A stretch of DNA of 63,847 nt, filler included, from Globobulimina sp. (GCA_003354225.1; 57 parts of 57 records of this genome joined end to end with filler, not necessarily neighbours in it), one strand, 5' to 3'. Positions 1,124 through 63,847 are shown, numbered from the whole stretch's first letter. Notes: generated by a model not told the origin, from the letters alone. Numbers and translations: made by a program.

Positions 1124-2119
1124 GTAATAATTTTTTGTTAATTTTATTTTTAGCGATTATTAAGGCACCACAACATATACAACCACATGTCAATAATATA
1201 CATAACGCCAATATGCCACCTAATTCTGTCCAAAATGCATATGGCGACTTTTTGTCATCAGTTTGTACGGTTATTGAGGTATATAACACCGTTTCTGTCG
1301 TTGTGAGTGTATTAGTATTACCACACGTTTCTGATAATATATATTGGTTACAATATGTCACACCATCTGCAGTGTTAATGGTGCATTGTAATTTGTTATC
1401 GGTGATGACGAGTTTGTTTGTATGCTGTTGACATCCATTACTGTGACAGTACCAATTCATTTTACAATATGTCGTGTCTGTTGGTGCTATGTTTCTGATG
1501 TATGTTGAGATTGATTTGCACGATGCAATGTCCTTACAATCGACTGTTAGCTGGTTTGTATTATTCGCAAATATTGATATACCATCACAGCTATGCTCCA
1601 ATGAGCATATTATTTGTATGCTTGCGCTCTCTGTTAAATATAAAGCCGCCTCAATCAATGCAGCGTTGGATACGAAATCTCCATCAATGGGGCCATAAAT
1701 ATCTAAATGTTATATATAACCATCGATCAATAAAAGCAAATTAAAATGCATATAACCAACGAACCTGTTGCAGCAAAATAAAAATCCATCGAACTGTGCA
1801 ATATTAATACATTCGAGTGAGCAGCATCAATAATTGTCTGTGCGCCACAATCTATTCCCATGCAAATAACTGTACATTGCGTGGAGTGATTACAGTGTAC
1901 AGTTTGAGCAATATCCAAGTTCATAAATACTGTACAAAGCTCATGGGATTCATCACAGTTTAATTGCCGCATATTATTCTCAAAAGGCAATACCATTTGC
2001 ATCTGGTTAAAATGTGACGGTGCAGCACATATAACGGCACAATCCGTGCCAACAATGCACGTTTTATTCAAAGTATAACCACAATGCATTTGGAAGTTAT
2101 TTACATTCAATGCGTTCAT
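1124..2119 (-). CDS. Cys-rich type I membrane protein, partial; intron 1703-1764
   Basis: Repeated Cys-spaced modules, a Thr-rich stalk, and a TM segment (LGGILALCILLTCGCICCGALII) followed by a basic stretch. A GT..AG intron joins the two ORFs in frame (AAT/DIYGP). Confidence 0.7.
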
Positions 2120-11130: not shown

Positions 11131-11260
11131 NNNNNNNNNNNNNNNNNNNNNNNNNNNNNNNNNNNNNNNNNNNNTTAATTAATTAANNNNNNNNNNNNNN
11201 NNNNNNNNNNNNNNNNNNNNNNNNNNNNNNGTTATACAAGAACCAACGCGGTTTTTTTGT

Positions 11261-12190
11261 TCAAATAATATTTTCCCAATCTTTCGGTTGATTATCTTTT
11301 TCCATTAAAATTGGGAAAAAATGCTTTGCATCTTTCACAGACTTATAATTGTGCATTGATATCAAATATGGAGAGCAACAATTTTCACCTGTACAATATT
11401 CAAAAATTGCAGAACAACAATGTCATATTAAACAGATACATCAAACATACCTTCCCCAACCCCGTCTGGCTTATACTTCCAAAACCATGTATCTTCCCGA
11501 TATATTTTCGCATGATCCGTGTCACGAAAAATCAAGAATCTCTCTCTTAAATTGTGATCCAATGTGTTATCTTATGTCATATTTAATTATTTAGTAAACA
11601 CAACATAAAGACATATATAATTACCTGGCCGTATACCAACGCCTAATAAGCATATGCCAGTGGTCGGGTCTTCCCCCGCACCGTCACGGTCAATGCAGTG
11701 CGATCTACCGGTCGTAGTGGCCAACGTTGGTAAATGTTGCTGATAGAAACCGATTCTACGGATGGTTTCGCGTGATATTACATAACATATTCCGGAATTA
11801 AACACAACATTCTCTGAGCTCCATCGAGACCGAATTGAATGTCCAATGTAATGTGGAAATGATGCGTCGTAATATTGCAAAAAGCCAAATAGATTTTGTG
11901 TGGCAACAAAGGTGTCGTCATCTGCCTTGATGAACCACTCGAAATTGTTGTATAACGATTCTGTGGAATACACTTTTGTCCACATTCTATGCACTTTTTC
12001 CCCTTCATCAAATAAATAAAATGCATTATTCATTAATTGTAAGATAACTGATAACTTAACATATATTGCGGACATGTTTCTCGTTGTTTTGTGTGCGCGT
12101 CAATGGTATTATTAATGTTTGGAACCCAGCATATTGATCTGGTGCGTCCTGAGCTTCATCAATGACCCACATCAATTTGCTGCAGCCTAC
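11261..12190 (-). CDS. C1GALT1/Fringe-like (GT31) galactosyltransferase, 5' partial; introns 12003-12060, 11571-11624, 11389-11450
   Basis: The spliced product reads RNIWEKV..WFIKADDDTFV..NSG..YVISR..ED..G.CL..DNTLD..ERF..CCSPYLISMHNYK, with stop at 11261-11263. Confidence 0.85.
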
Positions 12191-12578
12191 TTCTATGATA
12201 TCAAGCAGGCCGACGTAGTGCAGCATAGCAGCAGCATGGCAATCTATCCAGCGNNNNNNNNNNNNNNNNNNNNNNNNNNNNNNNNNNNNNNNNNNNNTTA
12301 ATTAATTAANNNNNNNNNNNNNNNNNNNNNNNNNNNNNNNNNNNNNNNNNNNNAGCTGGTACATTACTGAATGGTAAAGTATATATATCACATAAGTTAA
12401 GCATTTGTATAAGAAAGCCGTATTTATATCATTTCAAATGCACGGTAATGTTATAATAATAATAAGTTAAACTCTTTCTATTTATACTGTGCTACATTTT
12501 AGGTTGCGATATTTTGCGTGTTGTTAAACATACATATTTTGCGTGTATTGCATAATTACACGGATTAGGTAGTTTATC

Positions 12579-14599: not shown

Positions 14600-15433
14600 G
14601 CACCACCACCAGTGCTACCACCGCCTACCACACCCCAAGCTTCAGAATAACTTATTTTGCCATCATGGGCGGTCGTTGTGGTCCAATACGCGCCGCCGCA
14701 GCAATCGGCGGCATCGCTTTTGAAGATCGATTTGTGTCATTTGCGGAGCATAAACAAGAGAAATCGCAAGGTAAACGAAGATGGTCTGGTCTTCCAGAGA
14801 TTGAAATATTGAATCAAAATGGCGATGTTGTCACAAAATTTGCTCAGTCCGGCGCTATTCTTAGATATGTCGGTAAGTGAATATATAGCATACACTACAA
14901 TATCCACACATAATTGCACACATTTTAAAGGTGCTATGTCTGGATTATACCCTGAAAAGAATGTGTTAAAATGTGCTCTTATCGACGAGATAACGGACGC
15001 CGTCGAAGATGTAATGGCTATTTGGGTGCCTGCTTATTTTGCGAGTTCGAAAGGAGACAACGAACAGAAAACAGCGCAAGAAGCCATACTCAAAGAGGAT
15101 AAAATGCCATATTGGATGGACAAGTTTAATAATCGCTTGGTAGAGAACGAGAAGCGCGGAAATAAAAATGGATTTGTTGTTGGTGACAGTTTAAGCATCG
15201 CCGATTTGAAGTTGTATTATGGCCTTGTTGTGTTTTTGAAAGGTGGTCCATTTAAATATATTGATCCACAAATAATTCATTCGCATGCGGCGCTTAGTGC
15301 TTTTGTTCAAAAAATCGCTGAAGTTGAGGCATTAAAGAGATTTGAGAAGGTTATATTTGCAAATTCGCAGAAAGAGAATAAGGAAAATAATAAAAATAAT
15401 TTTAGATATGAGGGTAAAGGCGTGTATCAGTGA
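14600..15433 (+). CDS. Glutathione S-transferase (sigma-like); intron 14873-14930
   Basis: TYF..GGRCGPIR, LP, AQSGAILRYVG/AMSGLYP, FVVGDSLSIADL; GTAAGT..AAG intron restores frame. Confidence 0.92.
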
Positions 15434-15722
15434 TGTGGTTTGGATCGTAAATGTGTGCATAATTATATGTGCAAGGATGTGTAGAGAAACATTTGTTTAT
15501 TTGATTATTAATTTGTAAAACTGCATGTAATTTAATTTAATTTTATTCAATTCTTAAGATATTTGACGAAAAATTAATTCGTGAACCTTGCAGTTTGCTT
15601 AAAACAGTCTGACATTAATGTANNNNNNNNNNNNNNNNNNNNNNNNNNNNNNNNNNNNNNNNNNNNTTAATTAATTAANNNNNNNNNNNNNNNNNNNNNN
15701 NNNNNNNNNNNNNNNNNNNNNN

Positions 15723-16353: not shown

Positions 16354-16416
16354 AAAATTGTTTGACTCTTTTGTCTATTTGAAATTTTCTGTCTAATAGT
16401 ATAATGGAGGCAAAAC

Positions 16417-16744
16417 ATGGAAATCAAGGTAAAGTTCAAACCGAATCCGGATTATCGTTTGATGGATCAGGTCCGTGAAGTTTTACGATATTATCATTAT
16501 GCATATAAGACAGAACAGACTTACTGCTCCTGGATATTACAGTACATAAGATTTTATGACAACAAAACTCATCCCAGGGATATGGGTAAAAATGAAGTTG
16601 AACGATTTTTAAGCTTTCTTGCAGAAAAAAAACATGTTGCTACGGCGACCCAAAAACAGGCCATGAATGCACTGATATTTTTATATAAAAAAGTTCTTCA
16701 TATTGATTTGGGAGAGGATATTGCCCCTACTCGGTCAAAGCGCA
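16417..16744 (+). CDS. intI: Integron integrase, N-terminal domain (bacterial), 3' partial
   Basis: LMDQVREVLRYYHYAYKTEQTYCSWI..HPRDMGKNEVERFLSFLA..VATATQKQAMNALIFLYKKVL; GGAGG RBS at 16406-16410. Confidence 0.93.
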
Positions 16745-17966: not shown

Positions 17967-18229
17967 TTTTTAGCAGGAGAAAAACCATCGAGATACCATG
18001 CGTCTATAGGGCCGTTCAATTGAGGTAGTGCTGAACTGACATCATCAAAAATTAACGTAAGGGTTAAATTTTGATCCTTGAATTGCAGGCTATGAAAGCC
18101 TTTTACTAATAGCGGATATTCGGCAATGAGCTGATCGCTAAGGTGCTTAAGCTGAGGGAAAAGACCCAGGGCTTGAGTGAGTTGATCTTTATTTAAGGGA
18201 AATTTTTCAATACTTATAAAATGTAAGTG
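17967..18229 (-). CDS. mnmC: Bacterial tRNA mnm5s2U34 methyltransferase domain of MnmC, internal fragment (absent from the ORF track)
   Basis: Hand translation: HLHFISIEKFPLNKDQLTQAL..GFHSLQF..LTLIFDDVSSALPQLNGPIDAWYLDGFSPAK. Confidence 0.88.
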
Positions 18230-18237
18230 GTTACTTA

Positions 18238-18579
18238 CTTGTTCTGAATTATTTCTCTGGAATTCTCGCCATTGCCTAACCAGATACGGGAGCGTATTTG
18301 TGTGGGATGCGAAACTTTGTGCTCATCGAACTCCATTTTTTCAATCATCTCATCGCAATAACTGCAATGGATCAGGCTGCCTAAGATAGTCATTGGGCGC
18401 CGGTTGGATGACTCCTTGACTCTGGTGTTTTTGCGCAAAATTTTGGCGCGTTGCCGTTTTTCTTCTGCAGCTTTTTGCTTCGCTAATTTGGCAGCTTCTT
18501 GTTGTTGTTGACGTTTTTGACGTGCCTTTTTTATATGTTTTTTTTGGATGTTTGTGTTTGTGGCGCATATAGAGTCCAT
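18238..18579 (-). CDS. Eukaryotic exon with C2H2-like finger and start of a dual-specificity phosphatase-like domain
   Basis: CSYC..DEHKVSHPTQIRSRIWLGNGENS followed by a GTAAGT donor. Confidence 0.5.
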
Positions 18580-19088: not shown

Positions 19089-20110
19089 TGACATTGAATG
19101 AAAAACCTTTGATAATTCAAACTGGAAAGGACTTGCAGCTCATTTACGAACAAATTCGTGGTCTGGATTTCCGAGAAAAGATGGTCAACTATGCTGCTCC
19201 AAATTCTCGCTTTGTTTTCCTTCAACCTACAAACATTCAAATAGAAGTTATTCCAATTGACGGTTTTCCTCTTCGTGGTGGCTTGACACCCACTGACTTC
19301 CCCAATTCATTGGTGAAACAGAGAGATTTGTACTGTTTTATAAAAAGCTGCCATGGAAAGGATTTGTTACATGACAATTTATGTCTTTTTCGTTGTTTGG
19401 CAGTTTTCCTATCAAAAAAGGGGCCACAGTATTGTGAAAAGGAAGCAAAAAGGTTGGCCAAAATATATTGTGTTGAACGGGGAATTTGGTTTCCCAGATT
19501 CTCCGGTGTTACAATGGGAGAACTTGAATTTGTAGAATGTTGTTTCGATGTTGGATTGAAAGTGTATGCAAACAATGGAGACTCAAAGTTTCTTTGTCGA
19601 CTTCCTCAGGAAGGGAAGAATAATGGAATTTGTCAATTATTCAGATTCAAAAACAAACATTTCTGTCTGATTAAAGATGGAAAAGAAGAAAGTTTCCTTG
19701 GTGTTTTTCAATGCAACTTGTGTAAAAAATTTTCTTGTACTAAATGGGATGCCAATAGACATGAAGCTAAATGCAGTTCAAGGCGGTTCAAGTCTTGTGG
19801 TCAAATCTGAAAAGTACCTGACCAGATCAAGTATGATAGACCAATTGTCAAAAGTTCGTATATTTGTAAAAAATATCGTTGACGTGTTTCAACCATATTT
19901 TGTTGTTTTTGATGCTGAGAGTTGTATGGAAAAACCAGCAGATGAAATGACAGCTGCCAAAACAGTGTATGACTTTAAACACAAGGCAATTGTCGTTTGT
20001 GCGGCGACAAATATTCCTGGTGAGTCAGTTAAGTTATTTATCAACAATGGAGACCAACTTCAACCTGACAAATATCTGCGGGAATTTTTGGATCAAGTAG
20101 AAAAATGGCG
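19089..20110 (+). mobile_element. Polinton/adintovirus-like protein-primed PolB, N-terminal region; frameshift at ~19770-19790
   Basis: PNSRFVF..TN, DNLCLFRCLA, HFCLIKD..FQC..C..RHEAKC, then ExoI motif PYFVVFDAES in the next frame. Confidence 0.7.
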
Positions 20111-28064: not shown

Positions 28065-29086
28065 TGATACGTATGATAAAGAACAAGAAGCAAAATTCTC
28101 AAAATATATTCAACCAAACCAGCATCCACAAAAAGACATTGATTTAATTATAGATGAAATCGTGCAAATTATCAATACAAATAAAAACAAAACAAATCAT
28201 ACCACAAATAACGAGAATAAAACCGAAACTGTGGATTATTTGCCCAAAATAGATACAGATCCATCCGATGAGGATGAGATAAATCAAAGAGCGCTCGTTA
28301 GAACTGAGGAAAACAACGATATGTCAACGGTATCCACCCACGCTTCCATGCCAAGGTATAAATACATAAAAAATATAAAACACAATTATAAATAATACAA
28401 TTTATAGTTTAATGAGCGACGATGAGTCCGATGATGCCGATGATATCGATGACGACGATGACACCGACAATGCATCTGACGATGTGCCAGAAACTAAGGA
28501 GAATATATTGGACACATCCAGCAATGAGGAGGAACCCAAAAAAACCACTGTAAAAAGTAAAAAAACAAAATTAAAGAAAAAAAAGGACGATTTTTTAACT
28601 GGAATGGGAGCTGGTTTCCTAAATAAAAAAAATAAGCCAAAGCAAACACCGAAAACACCCAAAACCAAACCATCAAAAAAACAAACTCCCAAAATGCCAC
28701 CAAAGGCAAAGCAGAAAAATAAAACCAAAGTGGAAAAAAGCCAGCGGAAACAATTGAAAATAATGGGATATTCAGACGCGACCATTAATAAAATATCAGC
28801 AAAAATAGGCGAAGCTGCGAGTATTAACGAGTTTGTGGATGAAATTGCACGATTAAAAGCGTCTGAAAACGCAAAAAACAAACCCATGCGAGAAGACAGA
28901 AAAAAAGTAGGTTTTCGCTTATCGCCTGAAAATATCGACGCTCACAAGTCGAGTGATGGTGATTTGTTTTTATGTGTTGGAGCGAGGCCAGAAAAGGCGC
29001 GATTGAGTGGGTATAGACATTTAAAATGTAATGTATCATTGAAGTGGAAATTAAAAAAAAAAGCAAAGAAAAGACCTTCGTACGCT
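28065..29086 (+). CDS. Asp/Lys-rich hypothetical protein, partial; intron 28356-28407
   Basis: A GT..AG intron joins ORFs 28162 and 28412 in frame; poly-D and K/P-rich tracts. Confidence 0.55.
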
Positions 29087-29186: not shown

Positions 29187-29988
29187 GTGTAGTTCATTTC
29201 GATTTGTTAGCACCGTTTAATCGATGGAAATGTGTTGGGCAATATATCGATGAAGACGGCATGTTACATCTTAACCCCTTTAATATTATGAGAGATTTTG
29301 CATTTTATCGCAATGAGATAATGATATTAACTGCAAATAACAATGTAGCACGTTTGTTTATTATTGATTTTATGAATTATTTAAATGGAAGAGACATTTT
29401 TAAATCTAAATATATCTCAAAGTTAAGTATATCAATATGTGTCATTACAAATCATACTTACATTTTTGTTCAATGTTTTTTTGGTTTTTCAGATCTAAAC
29501 AGAAAGAAGCAATGATTTGTAATGAATTAAATGGAATGGAATGCCATCAACAATATGCAAATGAAATGGCAAGCACATATTTTAAGTGTTTACTTGAAAA
29601 AAGATTTAAAATTGGTGTGCATAGAAATTGTATACTTATTAATTTAGAATCAAAAAATGGATCAATTTGTTACGGTGTATTTATACCGTACATAACAATG
29701 AAAACAGCAGTTATACCCATTATAAATCAATTGGGATTTCGTTGTATTAACAGAGCGTCAGAGACATTGATCGATGTCTCTTTTGATTGGATAAAATCTG
29801 AATTTAAATCAAAAGGAATTATAAAAAAATACGGTGATGGAGGCGTGTCTGTTTTAAATATGACAAATGACACATTAAGGTTTAGGTATATTATTAAAGA
29901 GAAAACATTGGTTTTACCAAAATTTGGATATAATAATTTCAACAAAGAACAATGGAAAGTAAAGCAAAAATTATCACAATATAAATAA
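29187..29988 (+). CDS. Hypothetical protein, 5' partial; intron 29422-29492
   Basis: A GTTAAGT..TTTTCAG intron joins ORFs 29204 and 29437 in frame (YISK/SKQKEAM). Confidence 0.6.
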
Positions 29989-33674: not shown

Positions 33675-34560
33675 AAAATCAACACTGCGCGGCAATAACA
33701 ATGAAAATGGGAATCCCGGCACAGACAACACACCATATTTAATATCTGTACTCAATGACATATAAACACTGCCATAAATCCCACCTAAGCTGTTACCAAA
33801 ATAATTCCTATTAAATGGTTCATTGATTATTCGCTGTTTGTTTGCATTTTTAAAAAACTCTGCATTATAAAATGAAGGCGACAGCATCAATTTCATTAAA
33901 AATAATGCATTTAACATTCCTTGATGTGACCGATCTGGAACATATACAAAGTTTGTTAAATTTGTCAGGATAATATCAGATATAATTGGCACATCTTATG
34001 ATGATAAACCAAGCCATGACACTGCACATAAAATATAACCAAATGCATTTGCTTCCTGTGTAATATATTCATGTTCAACTTCTCGATAATTATGAAACAA
34101 ACCATGGCCAAATTGAACATATCTGCTATTATTTGGATGAAGGGCACCATTGAATATATTTAATGGTATAATTACTTCGAATTCAACCTGTTCCTCTCTT
34201 TGATAAACCGGTAGAAAATAATTATTTATGTTGCGAACAATTCTTACATTTGGTTGTGGTAAACGTGAATTTAAATACCATGGCACCGACATTGTGCCAA
34301 CAATTTTCCTGCCGGCATATGGAATATCAGTCGGATAATCGATGATTTCTTCAATTTTATACTTAACATTTCCATCTTTTATTCGAGAAAAGGCATCGTC
34401 TCTCATGTGCAGCATTGTACTGGTCATAGTTTGTGTTGATTGTACTGTAAAGTCCCAACTTAATTGCAATGTTTCTCGATTTATACCATTTGCTGATAAA
34501 ATATTAAATATATATTTGTTAAAATAATCTCTTCTCTCATTAATTCCTGTTATATTGCTG
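33675..34560 (-). pseudogene. Alpha/beta hydrolase-fold protein with one in-frame TAA (33996-33998), partial
   Basis: VQFGHGLF and YFGNSLGG (GxSxG). ORFs 33996-34469 and 33627-33992 are in the same frame (WLGLSS*DVP). Confidence 0.65.
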
Positions 34561-35918: not shown

Positions 35919-36940
35919 AACAAGATATATTCACGCCAATCTATAAACGATTAGCATTGAACAACGTTGTTAATAATAACAACAGCAGCAACATTGTCGA
36001 CGACCATGCTAAAAAAAGGAGGTTGTCCATGCGCAACGATCTACCCTTTGTCAACAGCTCCAATCCACAGCAGAATCGATCCTTTGATGTTCCCTTAATG
36101 ACTAACGACGAAACGCAAAATATTAAAAAATATATGGCGATTTGTGGCGTTTCTATCGATAATATCCATTTATTAGAAGCAAAATTGATGGAGAAGCAGA
36201 GGGATATTATGAGGGAAAATATCCATGCTTTCCAAGGCAATGAGCAGAAATTGGATCTCTTATTAGATAATATCGACGATTCCATAGAGTCTGTACAGGA
36301 TTTAGTTAAGTTCCATCCTCGCACTTTGCAGTTTGAATAATATATACATCCATTATCCAGCAAGCGAGCTTGAACCAATATAAACGACATATTAATAAAA
36401 TGGCGAGCGGGGTGAGTCGGATTAAAAAAAAGAACCATTCGCTAGCCATTCAAGACCAAAATAACACCAAATTGACAGCAAAGTTAACAGAGATATGCTC
36501 CCAATTAAAGTTGCATGCAAAATATGAACAGACGCTCAAGAATCCGTCATTTAAACCGGACACAGAGTACAAGCGCTCATTGAAAGCAGTGGATATATTG
36601 TCTACAAAACTAAATCTGACGTTTACCGATGGTTTGGAATCTATGAAGGCCGTGAAATCGCAGCGAGATCATTTTAAAACTTTAAATGAGAGATTTTGCA
36701 GTGAGGCTACAAACTTTTTAAACGACTTATTTAGTAAAAATAGTCGAATTCAACAAAGTAAGCCAGAAACTAATCGGCCTCGAAATAAATATGACAAACA
36801 GCGATTCATTGGCCCACATACTCCGATCCATGCCGTATTATTCAAATATGATGAATTGTTAAAACATATTGGTGCTTTGCATGCGGATAAATTTAAAGAT
36901 ATTATCATTTTTTATGAACGAGCCTTCAGTAAGTTATATG
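35919..36940 (+). CDS. SEC3: Exocyst component Sec3/EXOC1-like, partial; intron 36305-36360
   Basis: Spliced coiled-coil ENIHAF..QDL/QASLNQY..I...N..L.IQ..N..KL, and GLESMKAV. Confidence 0.65.
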
Positions 36941-42648: not shown

Positions 42649-43669
42649 ATCATCACACACATTTCAGGCAGAAACACGGCAACTTTTAGACATTGTATCC
42701 AAATCATTATACACTGATAAAGAAGTATTTTTACGTGAATTATTATCAAATGCATCCGATGCAATGGAAAAAGTGCGTTATAATGTCACTAAGGATTCCT
42801 CCAAAATTATAAATTCTGAATTACCGTTAGAAATAAATGTATTTACTGACAAAGAAAAAGGTCAAATTATAATACAAGTTTCGTCTGTTTTAACACTGAA
42901 ATTTCTATAAATTTCCCGAATAAATTTAAAAAAAAAAACTTTCTTTGCTTTATTTCAAAAACTCTGCACCATGCAACTACTTTGTAAAGGACACCGGAAT
43001 CGGTATGAACGAGCAAGAATTAATCGACAATGTCGGTACAATCGCACGTTCCGGTTCTAAAGCATTTGTACGTTCATTGTCAGACAGTGCAAGTGCTGGT
43101 ACTGCGAGTTCTGGAATCGGCGAACATATCATTGGCCAGTTTGGTGTTGGATTTTATTCTGTATTCATGGTCTCAGATAATGTCGAAGTATACTCCCAAT
43201 CTGCAAATATATGCGACAAAGACAATGCATATTATTGGGTCTCAGATGGTACCGGCTCTTATTCCTTGGCAAAAGCCAAAAATGTGGAAAGAGGCACCAA
43301 AATTGTGATCAATTTAAAAGCAGATTCAATCGAAGAATTTGCAGATAAACATCGCATTGAAGGCATCATTAAGAAATATTCCTCGTATTTGGAATACCCC
43401 ATCAAATTAAATGGCTCTTTAATAACCAGCGCCGGTGCAATCTGGGCGAGAATGCCCAAAGATGTGACAGAATTTGAACACAAAGAATTCTATCAATTAA
43501 TCTCAAATCGCTATGATGATCCATTGTATACTTACCATTCGCATTTTGATTCTGCCAAATTCTCTGCGCAAGTTTTGGTATATTTACCATCCACACATGA
43601 AGGTATTATGTGTTTCTATGTCGGATTTACTGTATATATTGTTAAAAACGAATGTTTTTTTTAGAGAAA
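42649..43669 (+). CDS. TRAP1: Mitochondrial-type Hsp90 (TRAP1/Hsp75), N-terminal ATPase domain, partial; introns 42878-42989 and 43603-43664
   Basis: FQAETRQLLDIVSKSLYTDKEVFLRELLSNASDA, IIQ/DTGIGM, GTIARSGSKAF, IIGQFGVGFYS; no charged linker. Confidence 0.9.
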
Positions 43670-46011: not shown

Positions 46012-47032
46012 TTTACATTAATTACATCTGGCTGCTGATGGCATGTTGGTGCATAAATATCATACATATCAAACCCTGCTGTTGGTATATAATCAAATGC
46101 TTTATTGCATGCATCCAAACATGCAGCACTTGGCTGGTCATATGCTGAGTTATTGCATGAAGCAATGAATCCACTCCAATTACATGCTTTATACGCATCC
46201 AAATATGCGGTTTGTGGCATCAATGCATGGCTCCATAAATACGTCAAATATGCAAAGTAATTTGGTCCAGTAAAACCTTTAGACATTAATACATTAAACA
46301 AATACACTAAAAATGAAACAAAAATACAACATAACCATTATTGGCACTTCTTGGATTTGTTATTAAGATTCCTTTGAGATTGAAGTCTTTGACCTTGTTT
46401 TGCTGAATTATAAAATTTGCTAATTGTGTGGTATAATGACCGCTATAACTCTCCTAAAGTGGATTGATGCAATTAATATTGTTGCATGTTGCGATAATTT
46501 GAAAAGAAAATGTTTTAACTTAACGCCCGTTAAATAGAATGGATTGCTGTTGAACGCTGTAAATACATTAAAGAATTGTTGTAGAAACATAAAATTAATT
46601 TGCTTTGTTTTTTCATCACTGCACTCATAGCCACTTGTTTTGTTGCTGTAGCTATATCCCACACCACTTGGAGTCTCCAAATAAATTACATTTGCAATCT
46701 TATTCCACGCATATTCGAAGTTGTCATTTACCCCAAATGCGAATTTCTGTAATTTAAATGGGCCATGTTCTTGGAAGAAGCCATATTCCTTTATTGTCAA
46801 AATGGAGTTAATATCAATTACAAGCGCAACAATTAAGGTACATATAAAGGTACTAAACAATGGATGAAGCGCCAGGGCCGCCATTGTTCCATATCACTAT
46901 AGGATCTGTGGATGGATTATTTTGTGATTCGACAAACCAAAAGAATAACGACGTTTCATCTGCATCAGGTAATGGCATATATCCTGCATACATTTTAAAT
47001 GGAATCTCTGAAAATGATCCATTGTACAATGG
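46012..47032 (-). CDS. Serine carboxypeptidase (S10), partial; introns 46789-46858, 46454-46524, 46277-46335
   Basis: Spliced: [72 protein letters not shown]. Confidence 0.93.
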
Positions 47033-47269
47033 NNNNNNNNNNNNNNNNNNNNNNNNNNNNNNNNNNNNNNNNNNNNTTAATTAATTAANNNNNNNNNNNN
47101 NNNNNNNNNNNNNNNNNNNNNNNNNNNNNNNNTCTTTGAGCTATCATCACAAGAAGAGATTTGTAGGTGGCAGCTGTCCACGGCGCTACGTACGCCGTAC
47201 CATAATAAATAGCAGCGGTTCCAATGGCTGCTGTACGTACCATAATAAATAAAAACTGTTCATCCACAC

Positions 47270-47711
47270 CATCACCAATATTAATCCTATCCCCTCCACA
47301 GCCAATTTGTCCACATCTATTATCACCAAATAACCAGCAATGTCCATCGAAATTCAATTTCTTTGGAAATATTTATGTTGTTTTACTCCAATTATTTGAT
47401 TTCTTGATGGCAATAACATTGTATTTGAATTACAATCATTCTCATTCCATTTATATAGGTACAATTTGTCCATTTTCATTACACCCAAACACAAATAATT
47501 TATAATCGCTGGAAAGGCATAAATTATGATTGGATCCGCAACAAATATCCATAATTATAATATTATTTTCTATTTGAATTAATTTGGGATAATAAATATT
47601 ATCATTATCAATCGATTCATATCCACATTGATTGAATGTATTATTTCCAAAGCCATAAATAAATCCATTTCCCATATACTTTATTAGTATGCATCGATCG
47701 ATGCATTCCAC
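47270..47711 (-). CDS. RCC1-repeat protein fragment, disrupted or chimeric
   Basis: IYGFGNN.FNQCG, DICCGSNHNLCL, VFGCNENGQ, WLFGDNRCGQIG. Confidence 0.7.
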
Positions 47712-47835
47712 AACCTGCCATAACCACAGCCATTATGGTTCCTTTTCATTCATATTATTAACATGTTCTTGCCACAGATATGGTGGCTCTTTCTTAACCA
47801 TATTATTACCACGTTTGGTGGCTGGTTATATATTT

Positions 47836-47938
47836 ATTCTCTCATTCTAGCCGCCTTAATATATTATATGACGGATTCTTTCTCATTATCGCCGCCTTAA
47901 TATATGACGGCATTCCTTCTCATTATCGCCGCCTTTAT
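47836..47938 (+). repeat. Imperfect 37-39 bp tandem repeat with internal dyad
   Basis: Units attc(t)ttctcattatcgccgccttaatatatgacgg start at 47836, 47875 and 47912. Confidence 0.75.
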
Positions 47939-48085
47939 GGCCATGCAGAAGGCCATCATAAAATTCATTTTTTAATTCATTTTTAATCCATTTTCAATCA
48001 CTTTTAACTCATAATATAGTAAATATACGGCATCGATAACCGTTTTAATTCATTATAATATCCAATTTTAATGCTTGTATTTTGT

Positions 48086-48153
48086 TGGAGTTGCCTCAGG
48101 ATTTGAACCTGAATCTCTGGACGCATCCAGTGTTCTGCTTGAGCTAGGCGACG
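48086..48153 (-). ncRNA. tRNA-like element (pseudo-tRNA or SINE head) with a 4-nt anticodon loop
   Basis: GTCGCC TA GCTC AAGCA GAAC A CTGGA TGCG TCCAG AGAT TCAGG TTCAAAT CCTGA GGCAAC TCCA; cloverleaf with A-box-like and B-box sequences. Confidence 0.7.
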
Positions 48154-51616: not shown

Positions 51617-51975
51617 CACTTACAATTTGTACTAAATCCACAAATGCCTTCCGTACAACAAAGACAATTTCAACAAATTCAACCGATTCATGTGCAACAA
51701 ATACAATCTGCTGCCATTCCGCAACAACAATTTGTTTTAAACCCAGTTAAGTGTTTTAGATGTTTTGTTTTTGTGTGGTTTTACTTTTACACAACATAAT
51801 GCACAGAGTGCTGCATCGTTGCCCAATATGATTGCAAATAAGAATAAGAATGTCACATTTCCAAAGAGTGTGAATCGTAATCATAATAACAATAACAGTG
51901 AGTTAATGGATGACGATTTAAACACTGCGGCTGCGTTGCTGGCAAGTTTAAAACATAAAATTACGCCCAAAATGG
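51617..51975 (+). CDS. Eukaryotic Gln-rich protein fragment; intron 51746-51806
   Basis: Q-rich exon joined in frame (VLNP/SAASL) by a GTTAAGT..CACAG intron. Confidence 0.55.
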
Positions 51976-52240: not shown

Positions 52241-52404
52241 GTGTAGTAATTCAAAATTTATCATATTCATAGTTAATAGTTTTGGGACTATAAATCCATA
52301 ACATAGAATCTTAGAGCACTATTTTTTTTGGAAATTGGTTATTGTGTGCAAATTACTATTTCGTAAATTGCCCTGCCAATTGATATTAACAAGAATCTAT
52401 ATTT

Positions 52405-52637
52405 ATGAGAACTATTGATTTGAAAACCTGGAAAAGGAAAGAGCATTTTGATTTTTTCACTCAATTTGATGAACCTTTTTCAGGTATTGTTACTGAAGTT
52501 GATTGTACAATAGCACGAAATACGGCTAAAAAAAAGAATGGCTCCTTTTTTTCATATTATTTACATAAATCGTTGTTAGCTGTTAATCAAATTGAAGAGT
52601 TTCAATATCGTATTCATGAAAATAGGGTTGTGGTTTA
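52405..52637 (+). CDS. cat: CatA-family chloramphenicol/O-acetyltransferase, 3' partial (Bacteroidota-like)
   Basis: IDLKTWKRKEHFDFF..FDEPF..EVDCT..SFF.YYLHKSL.AVN.IEEF.YRI; no Shine-Dalgarno sequence upstream. Confidence 0.88.
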
Positions 52638-56175: not shown

Positions 56176-56841
56176 ATGTCATCAATGTACGTTGTACTGT
56201 CACACTTGAAAAAAAAGGGTCTTCTTTCATTGGATGATCCGTTATGCAAATACTGGCCGGAATTTGCACAAAATGGTAAAGAGACAATAACAGTTCGTGA
56301 TGTATGCTCCCATCAATCCGGATGTTGTATCACTTCTGACGTTAAACCTGAGCAACCACCCAATTATAACCAAGTTATAAAATCATTAGATCTAGAAAGC
56401 ATGAAACCGAATTTTACTCCGAAAAAAGGTGTGGCATATCACACATTTACAATTGGTTATTTTGTAAATGAAATTACAAAACGTTTATCAAATATGAGTG
56501 CCTTGCAATATTTTTAAAAATATATTCGAGAGCCATTAGGCATAAAAACAACAGAATTAAATTTCGTAAATGCAACACCAAATTCCTCATTGTATTGCCA
56601 GATATTGGACTGTAAAATATCTGTATCATTGAGTCATTTTGCATGTGATGATAATGCCAATAAATTATTGAATGGTAAAGGCGTGTTTAGTGCTGGAATA
56701 GGACAAAGTTTTGCTTTTTTAAATGAAGAAGAAAATATTGCGATTGGTTATTGTCCATCGAGAGCCCATAAAGGATTGATCCCTCCGCATGCAGAATGGA
56801 TTGCAAATGACCTATTTCCTGCAATCAAATCAGTCTTATAA
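56176..56841 (+). pseudogene. Beta-lactamase-family serine hydrolase, degraded
   Basis: LDDPLCKYWPEFAQNGKETITVRD..SHQSG, YH, EPLG. In-frame TAA at 56515-56517, no SxxK seen, middle of the domain appears missing. Confidence 0.75.
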
Positions 56842-61605: not shown

Positions 61606-61733
61606 NNNNNNNNNNNNNNNNNNNNNNNNNNNNNNNNNNNNNNNNNNNNTTAATTAATTAANNNNNNNNNNNNNNNNNNNNNNNNNNNNNNNNNNNNNNN
61701 NNNNNTTACAACAATATCAATAATGTCAGCTTA

Positions 61734-62651
61734 TTATGCTTTTGTAGTATCTTCCACAATTCCTTCGCCTTTAACTATTCTTAATTTCATAGTATTATGG
61801 TTTGTATATATACACATATCGCCAGCAATTTGCATCGCTTTGGCAGCTACGTCATCAGCGGTTAAATCCGATCTATCCATCAAAGCACGCGCTGCCGCTT
61901 CGGCAAAATTGCCCCCACTTCCAATTGCCATTATACCTGTATCAGATTCTATTAATTCCCCACTTCCGGTCAATTGATACGTTGCCTTCTCATCGGCAAC
62001 AATTAAAATTGCGTTCAAATGTCTCAATATTTTATCCGTTCGCCACATACGTGAGGTCTCTACACACGCTCTGCGTAACTCATCTCTTTCCGATAACTTC
62101 TTCTCCAATAAATCCACCAACGCTATGCCGTCCGCTGCCGCACCTATTCAGAGTGGAATGTTTTCGCTTTGCAATTTGATACAGGAATTTATAAGAAATT
62201 TCTATGCAAGAAACAAACCGGCAAAGCCACACACTGCTTTCTCATTATTTAATTTCCTCAATTTCCGACCATTTGGCTTGGCAACAACCGTTCCTATGGT
62301 CATTTGCCCATCGCCAACCATTACAACTTCGTCGTCTTTACGTACACAAATTATTGTGGTGGAATGTATTTCAATGGGATTGTTTGTTTGTGCTGTTAGA
62401 GGGTGATAGAACTGATACGGTGACACGAATTGTTGATTATAAAATCTTTTGTTGGTTGTAGTTGTAAGTGCGTTGTATGGTGATAGAGGTTTGGATGTTG
62501 AGTTTGTGGTTTTGTTGCTTTGATGTATCAATGGTGAACAAGTGTTATTGTAGGAACGGATGCATTGGGATTGTTTGCGTAATGCGTGGATATTTGTACG
62601 AGATACTTTTGAGTTAGTAATTGAGGCTCTCATGGAGCGTAACAGTGCCAT
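61734..62651 (-). CDS. hslV: Mitochondrial HslV (ClpQ) protease, complete; intron 62144-62218
   Basis: Basic presequence, mature HS/TTIICVRK..GDGQ, GFA/GAAADG, WRTDKILRHL, AIGSGG.FA, A.D.CIYTN. Confidence 0.95.
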
Positions 62652-63847
62652 TGGATGATGTATTTAAATGTTTTTACCTAAACAGTTTTTATTAGTGTAT
62701 GAATAATGAACAACAACACATTTGCANNNNNNNNNNNNNNNNNNNNNNNNNNNNNNNNNNNNNNNNNNNNTTAATTAATTAANNNNNNNNNNNNNNNNNN
62801 NNNNNNNNNNNNNNNNNNNNNNNNNNTTGCATTTTTTTTTTGTATTTTGTGATTTTTTTGCGGTGTTTTTACCTTTATTATTTTATTTAAACATATGCTA
62901 AATATTGTGCCCACTAATTTAATTTTTATATTGCTAATAGCATGGGCTGAATTCCTCGAACTCGCTCTAGTTAGTCTCTACTCGCTATAACTCAGACTAG
63001 TCCTTAACTTATCTCAAAAACGTATATACAAACTTATGTACGTGTACCTCACTTTAACTTTCTTATATTATGCATATATAACCAACATATATTTACCAAC
63101 ATATATTTACCTTCTTCTTCTTTTCTTTTTACGGGTACAGCTCTATATCGTGAATAGGTTGAACACTTGACCCCCCAAATGTAGAGACTTGCTAGTTTGA
63201 TATAGGTTTGCGAGGAATAGGAAAGAGTAATTTCAAGATGCGTAGATAGATAAACTAAGAAAAACTTTAAGTTAGAAACATTCTTAGTCACATATATAGA
63301 AAGTAGTCAACAAAGGTGTAGAAATCCACATCACCCTTTTCTCAAAAGAAAGGAAAGTAATAGTCAGTTTTGTAAGTTACCAACATTTTAAGCTTCCAAA
63401 ATTTAAACTTCTTTCATTTTTCTAAACCATTCTTTCGTCACAGTCAAATAGCATTTTTCCACACCCATGAGGTGTAAGTCGTCTTTAAAGTCAAGATCAA
63501 TATTACGGTCGATATATTGGGCATTATTAATGGTTATATTGCAATGGGTAATTAATGTGATATATACAGCAGCTCCTGAATCAATGTCATGCTTCATTTT
63601 AGAATTAAATAAATTTGATAATTGTGCTAAATATGTACATAATAATTGTGTTAAAAATGTGTTCAGACACAACTCAATCCATCGCAACATATTACCATCA
63701 CCACCACCAACAACAACTACGTTTATACCACCATCAAAATACAGTTCAAAGCACTCAAATTCATCACCAATAATACCAACAATATCACAATACATTGAAT
63801 CAAATGAATCATTGATATTATGTTTTAAAAATAAAGTATTATTTAGA

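Follow-up and report, generated by a model that had tools for sequence, protein, structure and literature searches.

Extra-T 5' splice sites, in which a T at +3 moves the usual GT from +5/+6 to +6/+7 (GTT-NN-GT), are real splice sites and form the largest donor class in the DNA analysed here. The supporting set consists of 10 verified introns from 6 genes, with three of the introns coming from a single gene. Six of the 10 donors are of the extra-T form (GTTAAGTT three times, and GTTTAGTA, GTTATGTT, and GTTTCGTC once each), three carry GT at +5/+6 (GTAAGT, GTATGT, and GTTTGT), and one has neither (GTAATT). What is new here is that out-of-register 5' splice sites, a rarity in humans, appear to be the commonest form in this window. 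The genes were reached from the list of a first-pass annotation of the same sequence, which had assigned about half of 17 reconstructed introns to the extra-T type. In the window, the proportion is 6/10 for the verified introns and 8/13 when three candidate sites are included; the other five introns of the original count had not been listed. All eight extra-T donors named in that annotation are present with the coordinates and strands given for them, namely GTTAAGT at 12060(-), 29422(+), 36305(+), 46524(-), and 51746(+), GTTTAGT at 46858(-), GTTATGT at 46335(-), and GTTTCGT at 42878(+), as are the four normal-register donors at 14873+, 11450-, 1764-, and 62218-. Six of the eight proved to be splice sites, and those at 29422 and 51746 remain candidates. 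The suggestion that extra-T sites are a major donor class holds in this 57-kb window and is unproven for the genome.

By the window, we mean the whole stretch of 63,847 bases, which consists of 57 separate contigs of 1,021-1,023 bases each, joined by N44-TTAATTAATTAA-N44 linkers. Because the contigs are joined by linkers, adjoining pieces are not genome neighbours, and each gene fragment stands alone. The G+C content of the window is 28-36%. Pfam analysis of 40 open frames from multi-frame contigs left the majority as orphans. The eukaryotic-type matches comprised protein kinase, RCC1 (contig 47133-48153), Kelch, DNA ligase, UCH, PPR, and trypsin-like peptidase, together with S10 carboxypeptidase, HSP90/TRAP1, Sec3, rhodanese, a Fringe-like glycosyltransferase, and GST. 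A few open frames of the window are bacterial in type. In our reading, neither the sugar-transporter contig (10108-11130) nor the SPRY/rhodanese contig (40407-41427) needs an intron. A PDB search with the second half of an esterase gave no match.

The closest named homologs point to the host. The Sec3 fragment is 83% identical to a protein from the transcriptome of Bolivina argentea (EukProt), and the closest named homolog of the actin-like protein, at 74% identity, is from the same species (EukProt). The actin homolog search was dominated by fused actins, and P0101 was the sole useful match. The Fringe-like protein of the window is 88% identical to P0128, which falls into a 90% cluster with a protein of Nonionella stella (EukProt); a metagenome scan with P0128 found no relative. 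Judged by these closest named homologs from Bolivina and Nonionella, the host is most likely a foraminifer, and the rhizarian origin envisaged earlier fits with these two foraminifers.

Open frames are a poor guide to introns in this DNA. Across the whole window, 17,824 GT..AG pairs keep at least 25 codons open on either side, and 5 to 61 frame-compatible pairs compete at each junction, among the junctions listed in full. Since frame restoration is this ambiguous, the junctions were checked by evidence that is blind to the donor motif. Spliced contigs plus the homolog P0001 fixed 3/10 junctions, and homolog or PDB alignments fixed the other 7/10. A motif-blind codon-score path picked the same pairs at 36305, 42878, 62218, 14873, and 29422; this path has little power, and the carboxypeptidase introns were not reported by it. 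The introns it placed at 28323, 19692, 34039, 56483, and 61236 are doubtful, and two of them merely step over in-frame TAA codons.

The contig at 46012..47032 carries on its minus strand a partial serine carboxypeptidase (S10) gene with four exons (47032-46859, 46788-46525, 46453-46336, and 46276-46012). Its intron 1 (46789..46858, minus strand, 70 nt, phase 0) starts with the donor GTTTAGTA and ends with the acceptor ATAAAG. Intron 2 (46454..46524, minus strand, 71 nt, phase 0), which stands between LTG and the ESYSGHY exon, has the donor GTTAAGTT and the acceptor CTTTAG, and intron 3 (46277..46335, minus strand, 59 nt, phase 1) has GTTATGTT and CTAAAG. As reference for the joints we used P0001, a 483-aa S10 protein (PF00450) from a public assembly. 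Its identity to the window's protein is 82% over exon 2, 73-82% over three of the four exons, and 64% in the alignment spanning exon 3. P0001 aligns without gaps across all three joints, at residues 104/105, 192/193, and about 231/232.

Contigs of four public runs (X4, X5, X6, and X1) were then aligned to the carboxypeptidase contig. The X4 contig is unspliced over 46179-47032 and shows 0 differences from the window. X5, X6, and X1 have zero depth within all three introns. At intron 1, 70 nt are skipped in X5, X6, and X1, and reading the cut at +1 yields GT..AG on the minus strand. The joint at intron 2 runs 46453>46526 in the same three runs, with 72 bases skipped and one other letter inserted; that letter reflects a synonymous difference in the exon's final base, 46525, where the codon is GGC in the window and GGA in the spliced contigs. 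At intron 3, 59 nt are skipped in X5 and X1, a cut at +3 gives GT..AG, and X6 yielded no joint contig at this intron. Two of the joints are positionally ambiguous, with GT..AG as the sole canonical placement, and in the third, after the 46525 difference is taken into account, no letters are shared. We read the X5, X6, and X1 contigs as RNA-derived, solely from their skipping of the introns. On that reading, precise removal from transcripts is observed for 3/10 verified introns, all of them in the carboxypeptidase gene. Both the spliced contigs and P0001 agree with the earlier assignment of all three introns to the extra-T type (GTTTAGT, GTTAAGT, and GTTATGT), and the transcript check of the cleavage sites that had been proposed returned, for this contig, the same three donors.

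Three further extra-T donors lie in three other genes. The TRAP1/HSP75 contig (42649-43669, plus strand) contains an intron of 112 nt in phase 0 at 42878..42989 (plus strand), with the donor GTTTCGTC (GTTTCGT) and the acceptor TGTAAAG. Exon 1 ends with ...KGQIIIQ and exon 2 starts with DTGIGM, which corresponds to the consecutive residues Q88 and D89 in the chain ranges of zebrafish TRAP1 (6d14_A); we derived this placement from the PDB chain ranges listed for each exon match. In the Sec3 (exocyst) contig (35919-36940, plus strand), a 56-nt intron in phase 0 at 36305..36360 (plus strand) has the donor GTTAAGTT and the acceptor ATCCAG, and P0124, the Bolivina argentea protein with 83% identity, has its residues 1035/1036 joined at 36304/36361. 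The third gene encodes the Fringe-like glycosyltransferase (contig 11231-12253, minus strand), whose three introns were fixed by P0128. Its intron 1 (12003..12060, minus strand, 58 nt, phase 1) has the donor GTTAAGTT and the acceptor GATGAAG. P0128 reads VRNI-W-EKVHRMW at this point, and the W codon is split T/GG exactly at the intron ends.

The Fringe-like gene also supplies two of the four remaining donors. Intron 2 (11571..11624, minus strand, 54 nt, phase 1; donor GTAATTAT, acceptor ACATAAG) appears in tblastn against P0128 as an 18-codon gap with stop codons between GIRP and NTLDHNLRERF. Its donor has no G at +5 or +6, and the intron is absent from the sites named in the first-pass annotation. 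Intron 3 (11389..11450, minus strand, 62 nt, phase 1) has the donor GTATGTTT and the acceptor TGTACAG; P0128 reads GVGEG/LDCCSPY and the window GVGEG/ENCCSPY, which are of equal length. Both spacings thereby coexist in one gene, with GTTAAGTT, GTAATTAT, and GTATGTTT as the three donors. A normal-register donor, GTTTGTTT, starts the HslV intron (62144..62218, minus strand, 75 nt, phase 1, acceptor GAATAG; contig 61706-62726, minus strand). Here, the alignments of the two exons to E. coli HslV converge on G48: it is the last residue matched by exon 1 and the first matched by exon 2, and it corresponds to the split codon G/GT. The GST intron (14873..14930, plus strand, 58 nt, phase 1; donor GTAAGTGA, acceptor TTTAAAG) in contig 14600-15622 (plus strand) is weakly verified. 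The alignment of exon 2 with GST P starts at G-RTLGLY, and the motif-blind codon path selects the same pair; the support is weaker because exon 1 had no PDB match.

Three introns were kept as candidates. One lies in an orphan gene (29422..29492, plus strand, 71 nt, phase 2; donor GTTAAGTA, acceptor TTTTTCAG) and is backed by the frames and the motif-blind codon path. The second, in a Q-rich orphan gene (51746..51806, plus strand, 61 nt, phase 0; donor GTTAAGTG, acceptor TGCACAG), and the third (1703..1764, minus strand, 62 nt, phase 1; normal-register donor GTTCGTTG, acceptor ACATTTAG) come from the frames only. Frame-compatible GT..AG pairs number 23 at the 51746 junction and 27 at the 1764 junction.

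The spacing of the second GT is strongly biased. Six of the seven verified GTT donors have GT at +6/+7, compared with 22 of 525 internal intron positions (4.2%), which corresponds to a binomial probability of 3.7e-8. This test is in-sample, as the hypothesis was drawn from the same donors, and the 6/7 enrichment is far beyond what choosing among a few hundred patterns could yield. The two donor forms also differ at the last exon base. G at -1 precedes 4/4 verified normal donors as compared to 1/6 extra-T donors (Fisher p = 0.048); with the three candidate donors included, the values are 5/5 and 1/8 (p = 0.0047). Written with the -1 base and with a slash for the cut, G/GTAAGT and /GTTAAGT are one seven-base word save for the second letter, and the cut falls before the first GT in each.

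Pairing of the donors was scored against the standard U1 5' end, AUACUUACCUG (PMC4856993), with G-U pairs counted; this sequence may not be that of the host's U1. No snRNA genes were detected in the window with Rfam, either at gathering scores or at E <= 1. In the canonical register, the six extra-T donors form 2-6 of 11 pairs with the standard U1, and in the shifted or U+3-bulged register they form 6-8. The four normal donors form 7-10 of 11 pairs in the canonical register, and for them the shifted and bulged registers are not better. Predicted duplex energies with the standard U1 are -1.4 to -4.0 kcal/mol for extra-T donors and -4.7 to -10.1 kcal/mol for normal ones. In short, extra-T donors pair poorly with the standard U1 in the canonical register and gain pairs in a register displaced by one base. 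Pair counts hardly differ between the shifted and bulged registers (6-8), and a G at -1 that a bulge could use is present in 1/6 extra-T donors.

These patterns suggest a model of recognition. The 5' splice sites come in two forms, a normal G/GU-NN-GU and an extra-U /GUU-NN-GU, the latter most often GUUAAGUU, and in either case the 5' end of U1 snRNA would meet one common seven-base word, G-(G/U)-U-N-N-G-U. On the extra-U form, U1 would pair one base out of register, with G+1 replacing G-1 opposite U1 C9 and U+2 lying opposite C8. The cut would stay before the first GU, since GU at +1/+2 would be needed further on, by U6, U5, and the catalytic centre. The register would be the shifted one, or its near equivalent with U+3 bulged, and its use would be routine here. 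Loss of G-1 is expected under the shifted register because G+1 takes the place opposite U1 C9, while a bulge does not predict this loss; the -1G contrast may thus weakly favour the shifted over the bulged register. Judged from the sequence, the chances that shifted-register U1 pairing, or the U+3-bulged near equivalent, is routine in this lineage appear to us about evenly balanced.

Shifted-register 5' splice sites of human genes were reportedly described by Roca and Krainer in 2009 (Nat Struct Mol Biol 16:176; cited in PMC9311317 and PMC4856993). The human sites, as far as the accounts consulted describe them, resemble those of the window in several respects: they have GU at +1/+2 plus another U1-matching block one base off, are of the GUNAAGU type, are cut at the first GU, and do not need G-1. 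They differ in that they are rare and atypical in humans, whereas 6/10 verified introns have such a donor here, and in that their register was proven by suppressor U1s, whereas ours is deduced from the donor sequences. According to PMC4856993, all validated noncanonical registers together account for 1.5% of 201,541 human donors, and the predicted human sites include 68 with a bulge at +2/+3 and 349 with an asymmetric loop at +3/+4. Experiments in human cells have established the shifted, bulge +2/+3, and asymmetric-loop +3/+4 registers (PMC4856993; reviewed in PMC9311317), and the model site for the shifted register was ACA/GUCAAGUAUA (PMC4856993). The bulge and loop registers (Roca et al., 2012; Tan et al., 2016) could also accommodate the window's donors. 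GUUAAGU would fit a one-base bulge at +2/+3, GUUAUGU and GUUUCGU would fit with U-pseudouridine mismatches, and the window's GUUUAGU is literally the tested asymmetric-loop +3/+4 model site, GGUUUAGUAUA (PMC4856993). The human bulge and loop examples given in the consulted parts of these sources keep G at -1, unlike five of the six donors here (1/6 with G).

The low stability of the predicted extra-T duplexes leaves room for a variant U1 and for recognition independent of U1 pairing. Weak pairing with the standard U1 would be odd, and unexpected, for what is the commonest class, and it may fit a variant U1 as well as shifted-register pairing or better. Such a U1, or a second U1 gene, would have a 5' end that departs from the standard AUACUUACCU and would match GUUAAGU in register, for example through an A that replaces or adjoins C8; there could be two U1 species or one that tolerates both donor forms. 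We consider this explanation possible, if somewhat unlikely. The extra-T donors look like a cognate consensus, with GTTAAGTT exact in 3/6 verified cases and GTTAAGT in both candidates, and in humans there are variant U1 genes whose 5' ends are altered (PMC3561869, PMC10870369). On the other hand, 4/10 donors are near-consensus canonical sites with 7-10 of 11 pairs to the standard U1, which requires a U1 function of the standard type as well. The first ~10 bases of U1 are, in addition, among the most conserved RNA sequences in eukaryotes, which speaks against a variant. A broader version of the idea is that in foraminifera, or in a clade of them, GUUAAGU is cognate to a changed U1 (or U6) with which it co-evolved, while the old G/GUAAGU was kept alongside. 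We put this forward tentatively, as a rather unlikely extension.

Recognition may instead not be driven by U1 at all. The GU at +6/+7 could be read by a displaced U6 ACAGAGA box, by U5/Prp8, or by a lineage-specific protein, and these very short introns would be recognised whole (intron definition) and not via the U1 register. The verified introns are indeed short and narrow in size, with 54-75 nt for 9/10 and one of 112 nt, the predicted U1 duplexes of extra-T donors are weak, and cases in which U6 rather than U1 fixes the cut site are cited in PMC4856993. However, the -1G contrast is what the U1 C9 contact predicts. We know of no expectation for this contrast in a U6-only model. Overall, we regard recognition without a U1 lead as improbable.

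Could the extra-T class be an artefact of a small sample and of ascertainment? AT-rich introns, one gene with three donors, and donor-like words picked from among many pairs might conspire to produce it. The 5 to 61 frame-compatible choices per junction, among the junctions listed in full, and the fact that three of the six cases come from one gene are in favour of such a view. The enrichment of GTTAAGT is modest, with 10 copies in the window versus 5.2 expected from a second-order Markov model. Three of these copies are verified donors, two are candidates, another four simply encode Val-Lys (4880, 20028, 34367, and 38699), and one is without frame context. Six of the 10 lie in an intron-like ORF context, compared with 1018/5444 for all GT (p = 0.0045), and among the six, 34367- appears to be ordinary coding sequence. 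Against an artefact, the six extra-T junctions were fixed by RNA contigs or homologs that are blind to the donor word, the excess of GT at +6/+7 (6/7) is too large, and the cases are spread over four unrelated genes on four contigs. For this window, the artefact reading is largely refuted, and we hold it to be very unlikely.

A mobile, introner-like intron family that took its GTTAAGTT donor along as it spread through several genes is barely credible: the same octamer does start three introns of similar length (56, 58, and 71 nt), but outside this octamer the similarity among the introns does not exceed that of shuffles (mean pairwise identity outside the donor 0.53 vs 0.52 for shuffles, maximum 0.65 vs 0.69), no second copy of any intron occurs in the window, and introns that share nothing beyond the donor and have no second copies do not make up a mobile family.

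With more than half of the verified introns starting GUU-NN-GU, the way in which this lineage finds the beginning of an intron may be unusual. Tolerance of out-of-register U1 pairing is known from few human donors, where it bears on disease mutations and on the prediction of splice sites. If a lineage really has such sites as its majority class, it would provide a large natural sample from which the rules of register choice could be learned, and it would reveal whether snRNAs and splice sites co-evolve. Gene finders trained on GTRAGT would then be likely to mis-annotate foraminiferal genes, for which genomes are few and fragmentary. Should the snRNA itself have changed, it would be a rare natural case of a rewritten code between U1 and the 5' splice site, with two spacings within the same genes.

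Donor consensus sequences that are specific to a lineage are familiar, such as GUAUGU in budding yeast and GUUUGU in Entamoeba. As in these organisms, a whole lineage here may depart from GURAGU, and T at +3 is common. The protist and yeast consensus sites, however, keep the normal spacing with G+5/U+6, whereas most donors in the window are one base off and both spacings coexist. A literature search whose scope excluded supplements, which possibly contain donor logos, found no report of extra-T donors in foraminifera, nothing pertinent on the foraminiferal splice-site consensus or on rhizarian or foraminiferal U1 snRNA, and no paper linking GUUAAGU to U1 snRNA. The introns in NirK of Globobulimina have canonical flanking splice sites (PMC6783311), those of Reticulomyxa filosa have a mean length of 87 bp with 2 introns per gene (PMC13746701), and 2.1% of R. 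filosa introns are 'minor-like', with no minor-spliceosome snRNAs in Rhizaria according to the same source (PMC11347168). Our introns resemble these described foraminiferal and rhizarian introns in being short and of the GT-AG type; they differ in their extra T, since the consulted sections of the three papers mention neither an extra T nor a donor consensus beyond GT/AG (PMC6783311, PMC13746701, PMC11347168).

The introns of the window are ordinary U2-type GT-AG spliceosomal introns in nuclear genes. All 10 verified introns begin with GT and finish with AG, and their G+C content is 19-36%. A U12-type (minor) identity was rejected, as none of the 13 donors resembles /RTATCCTT. At the acceptor, the base at -3 is A in 6/10 verified introns, which is unusual.

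We analyzed the acceptor sites of the ten verified introns, whose junctions had been fixed by spliced contigs or protein homologs independently of the donor motif. The base at acceptor position -3 was A in six of these introns (giving AAG) and T or C in two each; examples from this set are the acceptors at 46789, 46277, 42989, and 14930. In most eukaryotes, a pyrimidine is favoured at this position. The first exon base 3' of the acceptor was G in eight of the ten introns.

Position 46525 (minus strand) is the final base of carboxypeptidase exon 2 and lies immediately 5' of the GTTAAGT donor. All three public runs whose contigs skip the carboxypeptidase introns (X5, X6, and X1) carry A at this position, whereas the window and the unspliced contig of a further run, X4, carry C. 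The difference is synonymous (GGC to GGA), and it is accompanied by other, scattered differences. The base change at 46525 likely reflects another allele, a paralogous gene, or the presence of a second species in the samples; RNA editing is a possible source of the A.

Within carboxypeptidase exon 4, a 40-base piece (46205-46244) was also present in other contigs of all four runs (X1, X4, X5, and X6). These contigs showed deeper coverage and had unlike sequence on both flanks of the block, which is probably shared by paralogous carboxypeptidase transcripts as a common conserved element.

Two coding frames, both unbroken otherwise, are each interrupted by a single in-frame TAA. The first TAA, at 33996-33998 on the minus strand, reads ...SWLGLSS*DVPIISD..., and the second, at 56515-56517 on the plus strand, lies in a beta-lactamase-family esterase (Pfam; PDB) and reads ...SALQYF*KYIREPLGI.... 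No sensible intron that would remove either TAA was found. Each TAA could stem from an error in the assembly, from an allele that is a pseudogene, or from read-through of the stop; a changed genetic code is an unlikely cause because TAA is absent from long frames elsewhere. Two further long frames on the plus strand, 19091-19807 and 19671-20108, overlap by 137 bases, and neither had a Pfam match. Of the 38 GT..AG pairs that fit the frames at 19091-20108, not one starts at a convincing donor; the overlap could represent a frameshift error or an intron with ill-defined ends.

The window (1-63847) is not a single genome stretch; it consists of 57 contigs of 1,021-1,023 bases each, sorted by decreasing length and separated by linkers (1024-1123, 2147-2246, and so on) of the composition N44-TTAATTAATTAA-N44. 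Gene-neighbourhood readings across any linker would be wrong. Amid the eukaryotic contigs, we observed three bacterial-type frames, encoding a phage-integrase SAM-like domain (16405-16743, plus strand; E = 6e-29), an MnmC-type methyltransferase domain (17969-18322, minus strand; E = 9e-15), and a chloramphenicol-acetyltransferase-like N-terminus (52390-52635, plus strand; E = 4e-8). These frames may belong to associated bacteria, may sit on a chimeric contig, or may have been acquired by gene transfer. The chloramphenicol-acetyltransferase-like frame shares its contig with the Q-rich orphan gene that holds a candidate GTTAAGT intron.
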